DNA from: a virus | Length of the DNA stretch: 54,457 nt | Strand: one strand, 5' to 3' | UHGV virus genome: UHGV-0096558 | In this document: in pieces, positions 5,910-15,856 of the stretch | Layout: each line of letters starts with the position of its first letter | How positions within the stretch are numbered: the stretch's first letter is position 1 | Translations under genes and position numbers: made by a program | Notes under the pieces: model-generated | Told to the model about the DNA's origin: nothing | The model's input: only the letters and a program-made list of their open reading frames with translations | Database searches by the model: none

Positions 5910-6614
5910 ATGCGCAATATTCCGAGAGAGATGATTATTGATTCCGTCGATGCCGGAGTCGGCGCGGTCATCGACTTATTTGAACTGGACCTGACCCCAC
6001 TTGGCGGCGAGGTTGTCCGCTTCCATTCCGGCGCTAATGGCTATTACGGGAATGTTATCTGGAAGGGTATCGCTTACAACAGCTACCCGATCGAAGTTAG
6101 CGGCTTCGAAATGAAAAACGAGGGGGTATACGCGCGGCCTCAAATGGCAGTAGCCAACATCGGCGGCCTTATTACCGGAATGAATAACGACTTTAACGAC
6201 CTTCGCGGAATGAAAGTTACCCGCCGCCAGGTGGAGGTTAAATACCTGGACGCTGTTAACTTCCCTAACGGCAATCCAGATGCAGATCCTTCTATTGAGG
6301 CGGTATCTGTTTACGTTGTCGAGGCAATGAGTGAAGAAACGGCGGAGCAAGTACAGTACGAACTATCAACGCCAGTAGACGCAGACAAGGCTGTTATACC
6401 TGGGCGCACCATCCTTGCTGACGTTTGCCAGTGGCAATATCGCGGAGACGGTTGCGGATATAGCGGCGGCCCGGTAGCGACTGATAAAGATGCGCCGACC
6501 AGTGATCCAACATTGGATAAATGCAGCCACCGCCTCAGCGGTTGTCGCTTGCGCTTCCCGCGCCCGAATCCGTTACCAATTTCATGTTTCCCCGGATCAA
6601 GCAAGGTGGGCTAA
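5910..6614 (+). CDS. L: minor tail protein L
   Basis: Recognisable similarity to lambda gpL (EIDLT..GGE, ...RRKV..R.LDAVNF.NGN..ADP..., ...W.YRGD.CGYSG..., DKCS..LSGC). Confidence 0.9.
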   Translation: MRNIPREMIIDSVDAGVGAVIDLFELDLTPLGGEVVRFHSGANGYYGNVIWKGIAYNSYPIEVSGFEMKNEGVYARPQMAVANIGGLITGMNNDFNDLRGMKVTRRQVEVKYLDAVNFPNGNPDADPSIEAVSVYVVEAMSEETAEQVQYELSTPVDADKAVIPGRTILADVCQWQYRGDGCGYSGGPVATDKDAPTSDPTLDKCSHRLSGCRLRFPRPNPLPISCFPGSSKVG

Positions 6615-6616
6615 TT

Positions 6617-7348
6617 ATGGCACTTGAAGACAAAATGGTTCGTTATGCCGCCGCTCACCCTCGCGAGGAAGTTTGCGGACTGGTGATAGATAACGATTAT
6701 TTTTACCCGTGCTTAAACATGTCTGAAACGCCCTACAACAGCTTTAAAATTTCGCCGGACGATTACATCAAGGCTGACGAATTGGGCGTCATAACCGCCG
6801 TTTTCCACTCTCACGTTGAAGATATTCCGGTATTGTCGGCGCTGGATCGACAACAACAGGTTATTTCCGGCCTTCCGTGGTTTTTATGTTCCGGTGGCAG
6901 GGTTAGAAAATTCCGCCCGGTAGCGCACCTGTTAGGCCGAAAATTTGAGCACGGAAAAACAGACTGCTACGCGCTTTTCCGGGACGCCTATCACCTTTGC
7001 GGCGTGGATCTGCCGGACTTCGAGCGCCTTGATGGGTGGTGGTTGCATGGTGAAAACCTGTATTTAAAAAACTTGCCGCTAAACGGGTTTTATCAGGTTG
7101 ACGCGCAAAGCATCCAGCCTGGTGACGTGATTATTCGCCAGCCGTTCAAGGGTGCTGATCCATGTCACGCGATGATTTACCTGGGTGATAACACTGTTTT
7201 GCATCATGACAATGCCGGACTGTTAAGTCGCCGCGAGCAGATGCGGCCCGCTTATGTTCGACAAACGCATTCAATATGGAGATCTGACAAATGCTCAAAT
7301 TTAGATTTACGGGCAATCTTCGAAGATATTACGGCAAAGTGTGTTTAA
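6617..7348 (+). CDS. K: tail assembly protein K (MPN/JAB plus NlpC/P60-like domains)
   Basis: ATG at 6617 (MALEDKMVRY...) just after L stop; HSH..D motif and NlpC/P60-like Cys/His region; lambda gpK-like. Confidence 0.85.
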   Translation: MALEDKMVRYAAAHPREEVCGLVIDNDYFYPCLNMSETPYNSFKISPDDYIKADELGVITAVFHSHVEDIPVLSALDRQQQVISGLPWFLCSGGRVRKFRPVAHLLGRKFEHGKTDCYALFRDAYHLCGVDLPDFERLDGWWLHGENLYLKNLPLNGFYQVDAQSIQPGDVIIRQPFKGADPCHAMIYLGDNTVLHHDNAGLLSRREQMRPAYVRQTHSIWRSDKCSNLDLRAIFEDITAKCV

Positions 7349-7821
7349 ACGTTGATACGCCAGCGCAAGGACTTCGCTTATTGACTGCGCAGAATCAGGA
7401 ATTCAAAAAAGCGTTTTTAAACACACCATCACGATTACGGATTGCGGGAAAGGATTATAACGAAAAAACAGCGCCCGCTGCGGTTAATAGCAAATACCCG
7501 GACGGGACCACTGTAATTATTGCGCCAGTAGTGGAAGGTGGGATCGCTGGTATCGGTGTAATTGGCTGGATCATGATTGGTATTTCAGTAGTTAGCGTTG
7601 CGTTTTCCCTCTTTATGTCTCGCAACATGAAGGTAAAAACATCAGCAGAAAGCGCACAGGATAACACCATAACGAATAACACCTACACCAGCGTTGAAAA
7701 CAAGGTAGGCCAGGGTAGACCAGTGCCAATCCTGTTAGGTGAAATGAAAATAGGTTCGAATGTAGGATCGCTTGGTATCGACACAAGCAACAACAAAGAC
7801 GCTCTGGACGTTGTAAGTTAA
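7291..7821 (+). CDS. I: tail assembly protein I
   Basis: Lambda gpI-like; Gly-rich hydrophobic segment then ...ILLGEMKIGS...; overlaps K 3' end. Confidence 0.8.
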   Translation: MLKFRFTGNLRRYYGKVCLNVDTPAQGLRLLTAQNQEFKKAFLNTPSRLRIAGKDYNEKTAPAAVNSKYPDGTTVIIAPVVEGGIAGIGVIGWIMIGISVVSVAFSLFMSRNMKVKTSAESAQDNTITNNTYTSVENKVGQGRPVPILLGEMKIGSNVGSLGIDTSNNKDALDVVS

Positions 7822-7835
7822 TAAAGGGGGTTACT

Positions 7836-10800
7836 ATGGGCGGCGGTGGTGGTAAAGCAAAAACACCAGTTTTATTAAACGATAACTTGTATCATAAGCA
7901 GTTTTATCGCGTCCTGGATATCCTGTCAGAAGGGCCGATTTATGGCCCTGTCAATCAGGCGGCACCGTTAAACTGCGTAATGCTTAATGATACGCCTATA
8001 ACTGACACCGTGGGTAACGCAAGTATCCCCGGCGTTAGTATTGCGTGGCGTCCTGGTAGTCTCGACCAGTCTCCAATCAATGGATTTAACTCCATTGAAT
8101 CGACTGTAATGGTCAATGCACAGGTTAAGCACGATACGCCGATTATACGCACAGTATCAGACAGAAATGTCAATCGTGTACGTCTTAATATTGGCGTTGA
8201 TTCTCTGGTATCGAGCGACAACCAGGGGAACCAGTACGAAACATCCGTACATTTAGCTATAGATATTAAACCTTCATCATCATCGTCATGGACTATAGTT
8301 AAAGATGTAATTATCGGACCGGGTAAAATTAGCGGGGAATACCTTGAATCACACATCATTGATGCGCCGAGTGAGTACCCTTTCGATATTCGCGTTCGCA
8401 GAATTACGGCAGATAGCACCAGCGATCTACTTCAAAACGACACACGCTGGAATAGCTACAGCGAGATCATAGATGACAACCTGTCATATCCTCACACGGC
8501 GGTAGCTGGCTGTGTTATTGATCACGATCAGTATACTGATACACCGACCCGCGCTTATCATCTTCGCGGGCTGATTGTTGACGTGCCGGACAACTATAAC
8601 CCTGAAGCGCGCACGTATTCCGGTTTATGGCTTGGTGGATTTAAAAAGGCGTACACCAATAACCCTGCTTGGCTTTTCCGGTATTTGATTAAAAATGAAC
8701 GCTTTGGCCTTGCACGACAGGCTGGTTATATTGACGTTGATGACGGCGCTTTATACGTGCTTTCTCAATACTGCGACCAGTTGGTTGATGATGGCTACGG
8801 CGGCCTTGAGCCTCGCATGACGCTTAACGCTTACATCACAGAGCAAATGAGCGCCCGCGACTTACTTGATAATATAGCTGGCATGTTCCGTGGTATTGCG
8901 TTATGGGACGGGCAACGTCTTACAGTGATGATTGATGCGCCACAAGATCCGATTGCAACTATCACGAACGCAAATGTCGTAGATGGTGCATTCACCCGTT
9001 CGAGCCTTGCCCGCGCGGAGTGCTATAACGCCGTGATTGTATCCTGGACCGATCCGGGTAACGGTTGGGAACAGTCAAAAGAATACGTTTCTGACGATGA
9101 ACTAATCGCCCGCGACGGCTACAACGAAACCACACTGGAGGCGTTCGGGTGCACGTCTCGCGGACAGGCTTACCGCGCTGGTAAATGGCTAATCGAAACA
9201 GCAAAACGCGAGCCGTCGAAATTTACGTTTAAAATGGCCCGTGACGCCATTCACTTTACACCAGGTGATATCATTGAGATCCTCGACAATAACCGCGCGG
9301 GCGCTCGCTTAGGCGGTCGTATCGTGGCGAACAATGGCAAAGTGATAACGGTCGACAAGGTTGATTCTGAATATATCGCGGCTGGTGACACCATCAGCTT
9401 ACTTGATAGCGATGGTAAATTTAAAAAACACCAGATCACCGGAGTTAACGGAAACAATATTACCCTTGCTGCGGCCCCGGCATGGATTCGCAATGGCACT
9501 GTTTTTGCTGTATCGACTGAAGCAGCAAAACCCGTTTTATGTAGGATCACCAGCGTAGCAGAAACAGAAAATAACAGCGTATACACTATCGAAGCCGCAC
9601 AGCACGACCCTAACAAACAGGCCGTAGTTGATGAAGGCGCAGTCTTCGAAATCAACAACGACACGCTGAATCATTTCCGTGTGCCTAACATTGAAAACCT
9701 CAAGGTAATGAATGTTGGTTCCGAAACCGTTCAGTGCTCCGCGTCGTGGATGACGCAGACCACAACTCACCGTCTGACCTTTGAATTACGTGTTTATAAC
9801 GAAGACAGCAAAGTTGTCGCCAGTTATGAGACGACAGAATTCCGGTATGATTTTAATGGCCTGAATTGCGGTCAATACTCTTTAGGCGTTCGCGCCCGCA
9901 ATGATACCGGTATGAAAGGCGCGGAATCTATCGTTGATCTCGTTATTGGTGCACCTTCAAAACCAATTGGTGTTAACTGGATACCAGGCGTATTTCAGGC
10001 TACTGTGTACCCAATCAGCAAAACAACTCTGACCAGCGATACAAGCTATGAATTCTATTTTGCTGGCGAAACACAAATCACTAATCCGGCATTAGTCACC
10101 ACTAATGCACAATATACCGGACGTGGTTATCAGTGGACGTTCGGCGGAATGAACACGGGCCATACTTATTACGTTTATGTGCGCACGCGTAACGCTTTTG
10201 GTGTATCAGATTTCGTAGAGGCGTCAGGTAAACCAACAGAGGATTTCGATGAAATCAGCGATTACGTAACCAAAGACGTGATGAATTCTGACCAATTTAA
10301 AGGAATGGTTAGCGACATTAAAGATCTTGGCGACCGCACCGACCTTATCGAAAGCGCCACTGACGACCTTAAAACAGCCACTGATAATCTTACCAATATC
10401 ACAAACGGCCTAAGAACTGATACTGACGACCTTATTGCAGAAACAGGGTCAATAAAAGCTGACACAGATACGCTTAAAAAAGACACGGAAGATCTTTATA
10501 AAAAAGTTCAGGAAAACGCCGATGATATCGGACAGCATGAGGTAAGAATTGACTCATTAGAGGTATCAAGTGAAAAAACCGACAGCGAACTGGCGCAGGC
10601 AAAAGCAAGCCTACAAAACGCATCGCTTGCCCTTATTAATAACTCGCTTGCACAGACTAACACCCGCGTAACTCTTACCGCTCAGTACAAGAAAGGTAAA
10701 ACAGAGACGAAAGCGGAAATTGACCGTATTGACAACGTTATCGCTGAAGAGAAAAAAGCGACTGCGGAATCACTGGAAACCATCACGGCAGAGATGAACA

Positions 10801-12275
10801 CGATGGATACCAACCTGAAAGGTCAGATTTCCAATGTTCAGCGTGCAGTAGCTGACGAGGCGAGCGCCCGCGCTGAAGCTATTAGTGGTGTAAACGCATC
10901 GATCACCAACCTTGATAAGAAAACCGACGCCAACGTAAACCGCCTTGATCAAGCTATCGCTGACGAAACCAGCGCCCGGACTCAGGCCGTCAGTGACGTG
11001 AACGCAAGCATCACCACGCTGGACAAGAAAACTGATGCCAGTGTGAAACGACTTGATCAAGCAATCGCAGATGAAACAAGCGCCCGGACTCAGGCCGTCA
11101 GTGACGTGAATGCAAGCATCAGCACGCTTGATAACAAGGTGACAAGCAATGTGACCCGTATCGACAAAGCTATTGCAGATGAGACAAAGGCACGCACAGA
11201 CGCAATAAGCAGCCTTAACTCATCGCTTACCAGTACGATTAATTCGAAAGTATCTGAAGTATCAACAGCACTTTCTACGCATGAAACATCAAGCGCGGAA
11301 AAATTCAGCCAGATCTCTGCATCTTTCGAAGCGGTAAACTCAAGTATCACAGAATGGTCGCAGACCATGACAACGGCGGACGAGGCATTATCAACCAAAA
11401 TTGATCAGTTAACAGTAACCGTTAACGGGAACACAACGGCGATCGAGACAACATCGAAAGCGTTAACCGACTTCAAAGGTAACGTTGATGCGTCATATTC
11501 AATTAAGATTGCCACCGACAACAACGGCAGAAAATACGCAACAGGTATGTCGCTTGGCCTTACTGGTAGCGGTACTGACGTTCAATCGCAGTGTATTTTC
11601 CTTGTTGACCGCTTCGTGTTAATGACTGCCGCCAACGGCACATACCAGACGCCTTTCTATGTCACTAACGGCGCAATGTATGTGCGCGAAGCGTTTATTA
11701 AAGACGCATCGATCACGACTGCAAAAATAGCACAGCAGATTCAATCAACCAACTTTGCTTCCGGTTCCGCTGGGTGGATGATTAACAAAAACGGCAGCGC
11801 GCAATTTAATAACGTAACTGTAAGGGGGACCGTTTACGCAACATCCGGCGAGTTTTCTGGGACCGTTAAAGCTAAAGCATTTGAAGGTGGCATTAGTTCC
11901 GGTACGCAGGGAACAAGAAGTTCCAGCGGGACGATCACAATTAACGTAACCCCAGCAACCCCGAATAGTATGCTATTGCTTTTCGTTTCTGTATACACGG
12001 CTGGCGTGCGCACAGCAAGCGGCGACCATACCGTCACTCTCCATGCGGGAGGTCGTAGTTTTAACGTTCCTCCGTCTTATCTTGCAGGTAGCGGTGTAGC
12101 GTCAACTTACAGGTTCGATTCAACTATAATTATCCCGGTTACAGGGACCAATAAGAGGGCGGTTTCGATATACTTAAGCCAAGTGGGCCACGTATCATTA
12201 ATAAATACAGATATAAGACTTCTCGGCGCTGTATTACTAAACACCTCATTCTCATCAGGTACTTTTGATTTTTGA
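7836..12275 (+). CDS. J: host specificity protein J (central tail fibre / tip attachment), 1479 aa, with inserted coiled-coil repeat region
   Basis: N-terminal region similar to lambda gpJ over roughly 750 aa (e.g. DILSEGPIYGPV, NPAWLFRYL, EPRMTLNAYIT, GCTSRGQAYRAGKWLIE). Confidence 0.9.
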   Translation: MGGGGGKAKTPVLLNDNLYHKQFYRVLDILSEGPIYGPVNQAAPLNCVMLNDTPITDTVGNASIPGVSIAWRPGSLDQSPINGFNSIESTVMVNAQVKHDTPIIRTVSDRNVNRVRLNIGVDSLVSSDNQGNQYETSVHLAIDIKPSSSSSWTIVKDVIIGPGKISGEYLESHIIDAPSEYPFDIRVRRITADSTSDLLQNDTRWNSYSEIIDDNLSYPHTAVAGCVIDHDQYTDTPTRAYHLRGLIVDVPDNYNPEARTYSGLWLGGFKKAYTNNPAWLFRYLIKNERFGLARQAGYIDVDDGALYVLSQYCDQLVDDGYGGLEPRMTLNAYITEQMSARDLLDNIAGMFRGIALWDGQRLTVMIDAPQDPIATITNANVVDGAFTRSSLARAECYNAVIVSWTDPGNGWEQSKEYVSDDELIARDGYNETTLEAFGCTSRGQAYRAGKWLIETAKREPSKFTFKMARDAIHFTPGDIIEILDNNRAGARLGGRIVANNGKVITVDKVDSEYIAAGDTISLLDSDGKFKKHQITGVNGNNITLAAAPAWIRNGTVFAVSTEAAKPVLCRITSVAETENNSVYTIEAAQHDPNKQAVVDEGAVFEINNDTLNHFRVPNIENLKVMNVGSETVQCSASWMTQTTTHRLTFELRVYNEDSKVVASYETTEFRYDFNGLNCGQYSLGVRARNDTGMKGAESIVDLVIGAPSKPIGVNWIPGVFQATVYPISKTTLTSDTSYEFYFAGETQITNPALVTTNAQYTGRGYQWTFGGMNTGHTYYVYVRTRNAFGVSDFVEASGKPTEDFDEISDYVTKDVMNSDQFKGMVSDIKDLGDRTDLIESATDDLKTATDNLTNITNGLRTDTDDLIAETGSIKADTDTLKKDTEDLYKKVQENADDIGQHEVRIDSLEVSSEKTDSELAQAKASLQNASLALINNSLAQTNTRVTLTAQYKKGKTETKAEIDRIDNVIAEEKKATAESLETITAEMNTMDTNLKGQISNVQRAVADEASARAEAISGVNASITNLDKKTDANVNRLDQAIADETSARTQAVSDVNASITTLDKKTDASVKRLDQAIADETSARTQAVSDVNASISTLDNKVTSNVTRIDKAIADETKARTDAISSLNSSLTSTINSKVSEVSTALSTHETSSAEKFSQISASFEAVNSSITEWSQTMTTADEALSTKIDQLTVTVNGNTTAIETTSKALTDFKGNVDASYSIKIATDNNGRKYATGMSLGLTGSGTDVQSQCIFLVDRFVLMTAANGTYQTPFYVTNGAMYVREAFIKDASITTAKIAQQIQSTNFASGSAGWMINKNGSAQFNNVTVRGTVYATSGEFSGTVKAKAFEGGISSGTQGTRSSSGTITINVTPATPNSMLLLFVSVYTAGVRTASGDHTVTLHAGGRSFNVPPSYLAGSGVASTYRFDSTIIIPVTGTNKRAVSIYLSQVGHVSLINTDIRLLGAVLLNTSFSSGTFDF
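10833..11242 (+). repeat. in-frame tandem repeats inside J: two near-identical 108-bp units (10941-11048, 11049-11156) flanked by degenerate copies; exact 32-mer at 10970-11001 and 11078-11109
   Basis: Read directly; encodes repeated motif RLDQAIADETSARTQAVSDVNASIT.LDKKTDA. Confidence 0.7.
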
Positions 12276-12280
12276 TACCA

Positions 12281-12305
12281 GCCCCGCTTCGTGCGGGGTT
12301 TTTTT
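12281..12305 (+). terminator. rho-independent terminator (GCCCCGC / GCGGGG then T7)
   Basis: Immediately after J stop. Confidence 0.7.
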
Positions 12306-12388: not shown

Positions 12389-15300
12389 ATGATTTATACA
12401 ACAGGCACAATTGCAATTAGCGGCAATACCTTAACTGGTGTTGGCACTAATTTTACAGCGCCGCTTTCCCTTATCCGTGTAGGCTGTACACTGATCGCCG
12501 TGGGAAACCCGGTGCAAATTTTCTCAATCACAGAGATTAAAAGCGCTACAGAGCTTTCCGTTTACCCTGCCGCAAATCCCGCAATCCCTGCCGGGACAGA
12601 ATTTAGCATCCTGCTTACAGACTCAATTTCCGTCGATGGTCTTGCTCAGGACGTAGCTGAAACACTGCGTTACTACCAGGGCAAGGAAACAGAGATCGCC
12701 GCAGCCGTCGAGTGGTGGAAAGATTTCGGCGGTGATGGTCAGATGGATCAGCTTCTTGCCAACATTCGCGAAGAAACAGCGAAATCAACCGCCAACGCTC
12801 AAAAAACAGAAGCTGACAAGAACACAACCGAAGGTTACAAGAATGCTGCGGCATCATCTGCAACAGCGGCAAAATCATCTCAGGATGCAGCAAAAGCCAG
12901 CGAAACATCAGCCAGCAACAGCAAAACAGCGGCGGCAACCAGCGAAACCAATGCGGCGAAATCAGCAGCCGATGCGCTTAATTATAGAAATCAAGCTCAA
13001 TCCATTGTTGGCAGCAACATTGGCTTAGGTGCATCGCCGCGTGATTGCCCTGACATTTCCGGCAATCCATCCGGTTATATTGGCTTTATGCGCATTATGG
13101 CTGGTGCGAAAGGTTTTCCATCAATCGCATCAGGTGAAAGCAGCCTCACAGGCTTTATTAGCGGAGTTGACGGAAGTCCGACATATGCAGGTATTTTCCA
13201 GGGCTGGGCCTCAAGATCGCTTTATACTTACCGTTGGAGTGAAGGTACAGGCCCGCAATGGACTCGACACGCAAGAAAAGACGAAGTAGATCGCATTTCT
13301 CAAATGAGTGGCGATCAGACGCGCATTTACGCTGGCAACGGTAAAACTTATTTAGAGGTTGGCAATGATCGTGCATGGGGTGTTTATAATAGCGAGACTG
13401 GTCAATGGAAACCGTTAGATCTTGCTCAAGGCGGTACGGCAGGACGTAACGCAGGACAAGCACGCACAAACCTTGAGGTTATGTATGAGAAAAAATCAGA
13501 TCTAAGTTCCACAGATATTAATACGCTTACTGGCGAGTATTCCGGTTTTTATTACCAGGGGTTAAACTCCAACGCTACGTCAGAGCGTGGCTATCCTGTA
13601 TCAAGTGCGGGCGCATTGCTTGTCATCAGAAACAATGCAAACGGTAACGCAGGATGCACGCAGCTTTATTTCCCTTACAATGCCACGACTGGCACATTTT
13701 ATATGCGCCAGTACATTATTATTTCCTCTACGACTGGCTGGGAGTGGACCGCATGGAAGAAATTTCAGTCTCTTGATTTTACTGATAGCCCGCAATTTAC
13801 AAACCTTAATCTTGTAAGATCTTCAGATGTAGCAACTACCGCAGGCGGTATTTTACAAAGCATCCTTAATGATGCATCAGGCGCACAAAGAGCGCGAGCG
13901 CGTTTTTATTCAGAATTCCGTGGCGATGGTAAATCATGGGCCACAATTCACCTACAGAATGGAGATAAAAACCAATACGCAGGATTAAGCGAAGACGGCG
14001 ACTTTACTTTAAATAGCGGTGATTTTATAGGTAGGCGTTTAAGATTAACAGCTAATTTTAATTATCCCGTAGAAATATCAAGCGCTCATCCTACCATCAG
14101 ATTCAACGAAACGGATCGGCCATCAAATACACCTTACTATAGCCTTATCTTTGATGGTGGTAACTGGCGTATTCAGAAAGACGGATATGACGGGACGAAA
14201 ACAAGCTATTCAATGAGCTATAACTATGCAAGGGATGAAATAGAAGTACCTAACCTGAAAGTCAATGCAATTGCAGTACCTACAAACCTTGAACAAACTA
14301 AAACAAATATGCAAATCCCGTTTGCAGGTATTGCGCATTGGGTTGATTACAACGCTCCTACTGGTGCTGAAGCTGGTAAATATTACCCTGTAATTGTCAG
14401 CCATCCTTCATACTATAACGGCGATTTCCTTGTTGAAGTTGCAATGAGAACTAAGTCAATATCTGGCAGTGAAGAGCCTAACTGTAACGCAATTCACTTA
14501 TGGTTGCGTGATGGTGGCTGGTCAGATATGGGTGCGGCTGTATTTGGTCATTATTTCTGTTACGCAAACAATGAAAACGCGATACTTTGCGTGCGCGGTA
14601 CTGATAAAGGTCAGTATCCACATAACGCAATCTATGTTCGCGGTGACGCTTTCCCTATTCGTCTTGCCGTCACGGTTGGCTGTACTGTAACAATACCTAC
14701 AGCAGACTGGAAACCTTCAACAGCGGGCGATAGCCCGACTTATAAATGGGGTATCACTAATTCCTCTGATGGTATTGATTTAGATACTTACGGCATTAGC
14801 AATAACTTACTTGATTTCACATCGAGTGCAACAGGGTTTTATTGCACTGATACATACCGCAATAAATATGGTGATTCTTATCAGGTTATACAATCAAACG
14901 GAACTATACAGCCAGCTAACGGAGTTGCAACATATTTAAATCAAGACTGGAACGCACAACAATCAGACGGAGTAAACAAGTTTAAACCGATTGCTGGTCA
15001 AACGAATACGCCGGAAAATAATGTAGTTTATGGCGGCTTTCATGTTGGCTTTAGCGGTAACTACGCTACTCAATTCGCCGGACGTAATTCAAAATTCTAC
15101 GCCAGAAGTTTTGAGGCCGGAGTAGATAAAGGCTGGTGTCAACTTGCTACGCTTAACGCATCTTCGCAAAGGTGGACTGGATACCAACAATTCAAATCGA
15201 CGGAGTTTTTCGCTGATACTTACACAAGAAAAGTAAGTTTAGCCGTCGCAAATTCAGCGGTAAGAAATGGCGAGCTTTATTTGTGGGGTGCAGAAAGCCG

Positions 15301-15856
15301 TCCGACTGTATTTGAGTACAAGATAAAAGATCCAGACACAAACGCGTCACTTTCATGGGTTTTTTACGCGCAGCAAAACACGGATGATTCTTGTCAATTT
15401 CAGGTTAACGGTGCTGTAAACTGCGTAACAGTAAACCAGTCATCAGACCGAGACTTGAAAGACAATATTCAGGTTATAGGTGATGCTACTGAAGCTATCC
15501 GTAAAATGAACGGGTACACCTACACGCTTAAGGAAAATGGCCTGCCTTACGCTGGCGTTATCGCTCAGGAGGTCATGGAGGCACTACCGGAAGCGGTAGG
15601 ATCGTTTACTCATTACGGTGAAGCATTGCAAGGCCCGACCATTGACGGCAACGAGCTACGCGAAGAAACGCGCTATCTTAATGTTGACTATGCGGCGGTG
15701 ACTGGTTTACTTGTCCAGGTGGCACGCGAAACAGATAACCGCGTCACCGAACTGGAAGAGGAAAACGTCAGCTTACGTGCTAACATTGCCGTCATGGATG
15801 AGCGGATCACAAAACTTGAAGCGCTTGTCAGGAAGTTAACCGGAAGCGAAGAATAA
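12389..15856 (+). CDS. tail fibre protein, 1155 aa, with C-terminal S74-type intramolecular chaperone (autoproteolytic) domain
   Basis: Ala/Ser/Thr-rich repeat region near N-terminus resembling side tail fibre proteins; C-terminal segment ...SSDRDLKDNIQVIGDATEAIRKMNGYTYTLKENG... plus terminal coiled coil typical of endosialidase-type chaperone domains. Confidence 0.8.
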   Translation: MIYTTGTIAISGNTLTGVGTNFTAPLSLIRVGCTLIAVGNPVQIFSITEIKSATELSVYPAANPAIPAGTEFSILLTDSISVDGLAQDVAETLRYYQGKETEIAAAVEWWKDFGGDGQMDQLLANIREETAKSTANAQKTEADKNTTEGYKNAAASSATAAKSSQDAAKASETSASNSKTAAATSETNAAKSAADALNYRNQAQSIVGSNIGLGASPRDCPDISGNPSGYIGFMRIMAGAKGFPSIASGESSLTGFISGVDGSPTYAGIFQGWASRSLYTYRWSEGTGPQWTRHARKDEVDRISQMSGDQTRIYAGNGKTYLEVGNDRAWGVYNSETGQWKPLDLAQGGTAGRNAGQARTNLEVMYEKKSDLSSTDINTLTGEYSGFYYQGLNSNATSERGYPVSSAGALLVIRNNANGNAGCTQLYFPYNATTGTFYMRQYIIISSTTGWEWTAWKKFQSLDFTDSPQFTNLNLVRSSDVATTAGGILQSILNDASGAQRARARFYSEFRGDGKSWATIHLQNGDKNQYAGLSEDGDFTLNSGDFIGRRLRLTANFNYPVEISSAHPTIRFNETDRPSNTPYYSLIFDGGNWRIQKDGYDGTKTSYSMSYNYARDEIEVPNLKVNAIAVPTNLEQTKTNMQIPFAGIAHWVDYNAPTGAEAGKYYPVIVSHPSYYNGDFLVEVAMRTKSISGSEEPNCNAIHLWLRDGGWSDMGAAVFGHYFCYANNENAILCVRGTDKGQYPHNAIYVRGDAFPIRLAVTVGCTVTIPTADWKPSTAGDSPTYKWGITNSSDGIDLDTYGISNNLLDFTSSATGFYCTDTYRNKYGDSYQVIQSNGTIQPANGVATYLNQDWNAQQSDGVNKFKPIAGQTNTPENNVVYGGFHVGFSGNYATQFAGRNSKFYARSFEAGVDKGWCQLATLNASSQRWTGYQQFKSTEFFADTYTRKVSLAVANSAVRNGELYLWGAESRPTVFEYKIKDPDTNASLSWVFYAQQNTDDSCQFQVNGAVNCVTVNQSSDRDLKDNIQVIGDATEAIRKMNGYTYTLKENGLPYAGVIAQEVMEALPEAVGSFTHYGEALQGPTIDGNELREETRYLNVDYAAVTGLLVQVARETDNRVTELEEENVSLRANIAVMDERITKLEALVRKLTGSEE

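Follow-up and report, generated by a model that had tools for sequence, protein, structure and literature searches.

The locus described here raises the question of why a lambda-type tail tip gene carries a tandem array of 108-bp units, and whether this array is a recent duplication inserted into the protein or a regular part of its architecture. The sequence analysed (hereafter the window) is the 54,457-nt virus genome UHGV-0096558. Judged from its sequence relationships, it is a complete genome of an Escherichia coli siphophage of the mEpimmI (mEp021-like) group, with 82-91% nucleotide identity genome-wide to MagusPhagus and the mEp phages. The nearest phage record is MagusPhagus (88-91%), and no relative above ~88% identity was found among complete E. 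coli genomes. The array lies in gene J (7836-12275), a 4440-nt open reading frame (ORF) for the 1479-residue central tail fibre or tip attachment protein; the gene, its parts described below and the hairpin after its stop codon are on the + strand. We consider it probable that the units are modular, register-neutral length elements of a helical shaft, that homologous recombination adds and removes them, and that the shaft serves as a spacer.

The array consists of four in-frame units of 36 amino acids (aa; 108 bp) at 10833-11264 inside the J ORF. Tandem Repeats Finder (TRF) reported a period of 108, 2.1 copies, 85% matches and a score of 335 at 10902-11128. The best in-frame 108-nt self-match is 93/108, far above the 51.4 ± 1.5 (maximum 57) obtained from 300 codon shuffles of the same region, and the repeat is therefore not due to chance composition. 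Self-similarity at an offset of 108 climbs from ~10650, is highest at ~10950-11000 and is lost by ~11130. Unit 1 (10833-10940, NVQRAVADEASARAEAISGVNASITNLDKKTDANVN) has 66% nucleotide identity to unit 2 (10941-11048, RLDQAIADETSARTQAVSDVNASITTLDKKTDASVK). Unit 3 (11049-11156, RLDQAIADETSARTQAVSDVNASISTLDNKVTSNVT) joins a unit-2-type head (11049-11120) to a penultimate-unit-type tail (11121-11156), and unit 4 (11157-11264, RIDKAIADETKARTDAISSLNSSLTSTINSKVSEVS) is a terminal degenerate unit that comes last in all relatives and matches MagusPhagus at 103/108 positions. In register, units 2 and 3 agree at 86/108 nt (80%) and 29/36 aa (81%), differing at 22 nucleotide positions, and the remaining unit pairs share 50-66%. 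The longest exact repeat measures 32 nt (10971-11002 = 11079-11110), and this run is the sole stretch in the array long enough for efficient homologous exchange. The original prediction of a near-perfect 108-bp tandem repeat at 10833-11242 was thus right about the period, the place and the coverage of units 1-4, but with 86/108 matches and a longest run of 32 nt the copies are not near-perfect.

The array is preceded by a much more degenerate unit (10725-10832). The block ahead of the array (10602-10832, KASLQNAS...TAQYKKG...RIDNVIAEEKKATAE) occurs twice in the longer alleles of mEp021, mEp010, mEp044 and mEp554. The 32-nt exact run was absent from a collection of species-representative genomes and was found in one IMG/VR contig only. 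A Pfam scan of the repeat gave sub-threshold helical or coiled-coil families only (Apolipoprotein, Baculo_PEP_C and SF-assemblin), and a PHROG scan of the repeat region gave weak matches only; by these sequence searches, the 36-aa unit appears to be covered by no curated repeat family. Slipped-strand phase variation was considered for the array and rejected, as the units are long and merely 50-80% identical.

The position of the array in J is best understood by comparison with lambda gpJ. Five Pfam families match J above their curated cut-offs, namely FNIII-A_GpJ (aa 88-214), Phage-tail_3 (aa 335-492), Ig_J (aa 609-707), Ig_J_second (aa 709-811) and Phage_Tail_Tip (PF09327; aa 1202-1339, 11439-11852, E = 6e-41), the last of which corresponds to the beta-prism "central straight fibre" domain. 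With phmmer, J aa 1-850 aligned to residues 1-857 of lambda gpJ (8iyk) with E = 1e-184, and J aa 1196-1400 paired with lambda residues 838-1054. The predicted homology to lambda J is confirmed by these domains and alignments, and by sequence J is a lambda gpJ-type tip attachment or central tail fibre protein. The lambda-like stretch had been placed at about the first 750 aa; it reaches aa ~817-850 and picks up again at aa 1196. Since the similarity resumes at that point (lambda 838-1054), the segment between, originally described as an insertion, is not a foreign insert but an expansion of lambda's short alpha-helical shaft. The order of the tail module genes, L-K-I-J, also holds in the window, where the ORFs at 5910-6614, 6521-7348 and 7291-7821 match in size and order the genes annotated as L, K and I in relatives; one NCBI relative has Phage_tail_L and NLPC_P60 matches upstream of J.

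In lambda gpJ, the alpha-helical shaft (AHS) is a three-helix bundle under FNIII-2; the beta-prism "central straight fibre" comes next, and then the receptor-binding domain (PMC11101478). The extended shaft of the window J (aa ~804-1160, 10245-11315) is the counterpart of the AHS seen in 8xck and 8xcj. Both lie between the second FNIII/Ig domain and PF09327, with homologous flanks. The two differ in size and composition: the lambda shaft comprises ~50 residues (~aa 810-860, an alignment estimate) and has no repeats, whereas the window shaft has ~360-390 residues with a heptad block and the four units, so that about 345-390 residues of J occupy the place of ~50 in lambda gpJ.

The earlier description of this segment as a Thr/Asp/Ala-rich helical repeat region was borne out. 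There is no Pro in J aa 820-1199, and the most frequent residues are Thr (13%), Ala (12%), Ser (11%) and Asp (10%). Hydrophobic residues recur mainly with a period of 3.54 ahead of the array and 3.60 inside it, and in the control regions aa 100-480 and 1210-1479 the main periodicity peak is not near 3.5-3.6. AlphaFold2 (AF2) was run on a monomer of J aa 801-1479 with a 34-sequence alignment. The model has helices at aa 804-910 and 915-936 and an unbroken helix at aa 941-1160, after which beta strands begin. The predicted local distance difference test (pLDDT) score is 83-90 over the array, and low values coincide with helix breaks around aa 900-950. With an amphipathic periodicity of 3.54-3.60, no helix breakers and a predicted helix, the region has the features of an alpha-helical coiled coil in the model. 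A weak sequence match links J aa 823-923 to the trimeric coiled coil of reovirus sigma-1. By analogy with the trimeric lambda gpJ shaft, the shaft would be a parallel trimeric coiled coil.

The repeat unit itself is built as expected for such a rod. In 143 distinct units from relatives, R13 never varies, and conservation reaches ~99% at A12 and A16; positions 1-9 were restricted by the search pattern, and conservation there is no independent evidence. The hydrophobic positions 2, 6, 17, 20, 24, 27, 31 and 35, together with 10 and 13, make ten core positions per 36 residues. This corresponds to a periodicity of 3.6, which would be equivalent to two heptads plus two hendecads, and gain or loss of a whole unit should consequently alter the length of the helix bundle and leave its packing register undisturbed. 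A heptad-type block (DLKTATDNLTNIT...; ATDDLKTATDNLTNIT...) at 10338-10493 forms a second, independent repeat system upstream of the array. In eight phages, the distance between the FDEI and DLYKKV landmarks is 69, 83, 90 or 104 aa, all of which are 6 mod 7; the block thus changes in length by multiples of 7 aa, as a register-constrained coiled coil predicts.

Variation in the number of units is a property of the whole phage group. The J proteins of the mEpimmI group have been reported to vary in size and to carry "repeats of different length", after which come a stretch that is conserved and a terminus that varies (PMC11893012, Front Microbiol 2025). The architecture and the 36-aa unit of those proteins are the same as in the window, and the array in the window is therefore an expected trait of the group, already known to vary. 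The 36-residue unit, its register and the recombination junctions are not defined in that study. The window differs from the characterised mEpimmI J proteins in its own unit composition, including the chimeric unit 3, and in its own C-terminal domain.

The comparison of J across related phages that the original prediction had called for showed differing numbers of units and, for the window, a four-unit arrangement collinear with that of mEp515. The J proteins of seven phage relatives have 1393-1828 aa and vary in the number of 36-aa units and in a larger duplicated block. The J gene of mEp515 (L001 2336-6517) equals that of mEp021 (L002 2336-7519) less one clean in-frame indel of 1002 nt (334 aa), with 0 mismatches, and the indel junction lies at RIDKAIADE, the start of a unit. 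A degenerate-pattern scan of IMG/VR yielded 37 loci. They include an allelic series with 6, 7 and 8 units (L023/L018; L013/L028/L042; L029) and lengths of 4860, 4968 and 5076 nt, respectively, with 0-3 other mismatches; two tandem units of the 8-unit allele L029 are identical (108/108). At the lower end, no unit is present in the 1179-1182-aa J proteins of E. coli prophages, which retain the helical segments on either side; alleles thus have between 0 and at least 11 units. Across relatives, the shaft start and the beta-prism lie 398-803 aa apart. The J region of another contig, IMGVR_UViG_3300010283_000003, is only ~79% identical to the window.

The variation in the shaft can be compared with receptor use. 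Infection assays identified OmpA as the receptor of mEp021 (J of 1727 aa) and mEp515 (J of 1393 aa) and LamB as the receptor of mEp010, mEp013, mEp044 and mEp554 (J of 1504-1828 aa) (PMC11893012). The same receptor, OmpA, is thus used with a 4-unit J (mEp515) and an 11-unit J (mEp021), and the same types of C-terminal domain are found with differing shaft lengths. Receptor choice tracks the C-terminal domain and not the number of units, and the proposed effect of repeat expansion on host range is accordingly only weakly linked to the array.

These observations suggest how the array may work. The rise of a coiled coil is ~0.15 nm per residue. One unit added or removed would make the helix bundle ~5 nm longer or shorter, the four units would span ~21 nm, and the entire helical region would reach ~50 nm if it is one straight bundle. 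The array would grow, shrink and become homogenised via homologous (unequal) recombination among the units of one genome as well as with those of co-infecting relatives. The shaft would act as a spacer setting the projection of the beta-prism and the C-terminal receptor-binding domain from the tail tip. What the sequences show is the repeat anatomy, the predicted helix, the homology to lambda gpJ domains and, in relatives, variable copy number with recombination junctions; we infer from there the trimeric parallel state, the spacer role, how long each unit is and whether the variation is adaptive.

Several points weigh against this reading. The AF2 model is a monomer with an overall predicted template modelling (pTM) score of 0.27, and the chain could hinge or fold back at its breaks near aa 911-914 and 937-940, which makes the physical length uncertain. 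No trimer model or experimental structure spans such a shaft: a sequence search of the Protein Data Bank (PDB) with the shaft found no resolved homologue, the sole related entry being T1 gp33 (9l9p), in which the homologous distal part is not built. Shaft length has been tied to no phenotype by any experiment. Moreover, some of the copy-number differences in databases, perhaps including those of the mEp515/mEp021 pair and the IMG/VR series, could be assembly collapses.

The alternative put forward originally is that one 108-bp unit was recently duplicated in tandem, giving near-identical copies at a locus that is now unstable. Units 2 and 3 are indeed the most alike pair of the array, with the 32-nt exact run inside a homogenised tract, and the phage group does contain a genuinely recent duplication in the identical units of L029. 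In the window, the homogenised tract is confined to the opening 72 nt of each unit (66/72 identical) and has 6 synonymous and 0 non-synonymous differences in its 24 codons, but 10 of the last 12 codons differ; in total, the two units have 9 synonymous and 7 non-synonymous codon differences. Overall, the best match of unit 2 is not unit 3 but the collinear unit in mEp515, mEp021 and mEp044 (89/108), and the counterpart pair inside mEp515 agrees at 63/108 only. The last 36 nt of unit 3 match the penultimate unit of MagusPhagus (unit 1058) at 34/36 positions. Identity between the window and MagusPhagus is 59-66% over 10836-11135 and 92-96% over 11136-11735, which places a mosaic breakpoint near 11136. 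On this sequence evidence, unit 3 is chimeric, combining a unit-2-type head with a penultimate-unit-type tail, and two adjacent units resemble each other for this reason. The simplest reading of the pattern would be an old inter-unit recombination, unequal or inter-phage, with synonymous changes since; purifying selection on the unit is evident from the substitutions. As the copies are 80% identical and the four-unit layout is common to the window and mEp515, we regard a recent duplication as very unlikely.

An assembly artefact that created the repeat or altered its copy number is even less probable for the window, although assemblers clearly fail at such arrays. Many database J proteins marked "partial" start or end inside the array, and a check of one of them showed the gene extending to the end of its contig. 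The nearest relative of the window, IMGVR_UViG_3300001919_000001 (L043 at its end, L008 at its start; 54,639 nt), is 99.6% identical over the 3' end of J. Both of its ends lie inside units 2/3, in the tract of the 32-nt repeat, with a 29-nt terminal overlap; if circularised, it would have three units with a unit-2/unit-3 hybrid, which could be a true variant or a collapsed repeat. Together with the junctions in relatives, these cases agree with the expectation that the region is prone to recombination and assembly errors. An artefactual duplicate would be identical, whereas in the window 22 of the 108 positions distinguish the copies and no exact match exceeds 32 nt, a length that ordinary reads resolve; in addition, the J ORF is intact and in frame and the order of units is as in independently sequenced relatives. 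The sequence alone leaves room for a collapse of further identical units. A functional role different from that of a spacer is also conceivable, in that the units could be binding modules, as a surface glycan adhesin or for docking of side fibres, whose copy number tunes avidity or host range. The exposed residues D3, D8, E9 and N21 are polar and rather well conserved (the search pattern constrained those within positions 1-9), comparable repeats are retained in J-like proteins of distant phages, and the ratio of non-synonymous to synonymous changes is that of purifying selection. Conservation nevertheless peaks at the predicted core positions, as packing would give, viable alleles have 0 to at least 11 units with receptor dependence independent of their number, and no known binding domain was matched in the Pfam scan. 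Binding modules are therefore an unlikely explanation, and modular length units of a helical spacer are retained as the preferred one.

A further extension of the length-unit model is that the 36-residue units form a register-neutral "accordion", by which the reach of the tip is retuned in ~5 nm steps by homologous recombination. We offer this idea tentatively and consider it rather doubtful. If true, the reach might match the thickness of the O-antigen or capsule of the host or the reach of the side fibres, and shaft length would be a heritable, fast-evolving adsorption trait, independent of receptor specificity, in other J-type siphophages as well. Apart from this, the locus illustrates how modular helical repeats can make a lambda-type central tail fibre many times longer. 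It provides a concrete unit (36 residues with 10 core positions) and a natural series for testing fibre length against adsorption, from 0 to at least 11 units and including the 6-, 7- and 8-unit alleles and the mEp515/mEp021 pair. It also has a practical consequence: short-read assemblies of such common gut prophages break and may collapse here, and J lengths and "partial" labels in databases should be read with care.

Comparable rods are known from other systems. Reovirus sigma-1, T4 fibritin and the stalks of trimeric autotransporter adhesins are likewise coiled-coil rods that display a distal binding domain. The number of repeats varies in adhesin stalks. These length-variable trimeric stalks have no homology to the window shaft beyond their coiled-coil character. 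Closer to J are the tips of T1 (gp33), other Drexlerviridae and Klebsiella siphophages, which are lambda-like with a longer helical distal part and "IADET.AR..." repeats; they share ~30-40% identity with the window protein, and the T1 repeat appears by eye to differ in length (~33 aa). A few other phages also have similar repeats in J-like proteins. The distal part of T1 gp33 was predicted by AlphaFold3 (AF3) to be an alpha/beta fibre of ~370 Å (PMC11945409). A HMMER scan of 1.84 billion representatives gave 93 clusters at E ≤ 0.001, some of which are J-like proteins of 1900-2400 aa with repeats directly before PF09327.

Beyond the shaft, a Foldseek search with the AF2 model returned the lambda gpJ fibre structures 8xcj, 8xci and 8xck as the sole significant matches, a result that is informative for the beta part only. 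The putative C-terminal receptor-binding domain (aa 1340-1479, 11853-12272) ends in ...LNTSFSSGTFDF and was modelled with low AF2 confidence. It differs from those of all seven phage relatives, including the OmpA-type and LamB-type termini of the mEp phages. A tblastn search of the phage collection with the C-terminal 145 aa gave no match, and the domain is shared, at 99.6% identity, with IMG/VR contig 3300001919_000001 only. PF28217.1 is listed in precomputed annotations for C-terminal J fragments. Directly past the J stop codon, there is a terminator-like hairpin with a T-run (12280-12300). A scan within the gene gave 7 terminator-like sites against 3.1 ± 1.6 expected, of which only the one past the stop codon seems meaningful, and a promoter scan inside J found 3 against 3.0 expected from shuffles. 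Neither of two antisense ORFs (10770-11060 and 11090-11398) was accepted as a gene; such stop-free stretches shift in position and length among relatives, as codon composition predicts.

Some differences were noted in the genes around J. In mEp021 and mEp515, an additional ORF lies between I and J (L001/L002 1777-2343), for which the mEp021 annotation gives a putative HNH endonuclease; it is absent from the window (7821-7836), MagusPhagus and the other mEp phages. Downstream of J, a fibre gene (12389-15856) encodes 1155 aa with a C-terminal Peptidase_S74 (intramolecular chaperone) domain, and TRF detected a 21-nt repeat at 12897-12948. A segment of ~1.35 kb in this gene (13783-15151) shares ~79% nucleotide identity with the long tail fibre genes of Salmonella phages whose genomes measure ~107-115 kb, which suggests modular exchange between phage families.

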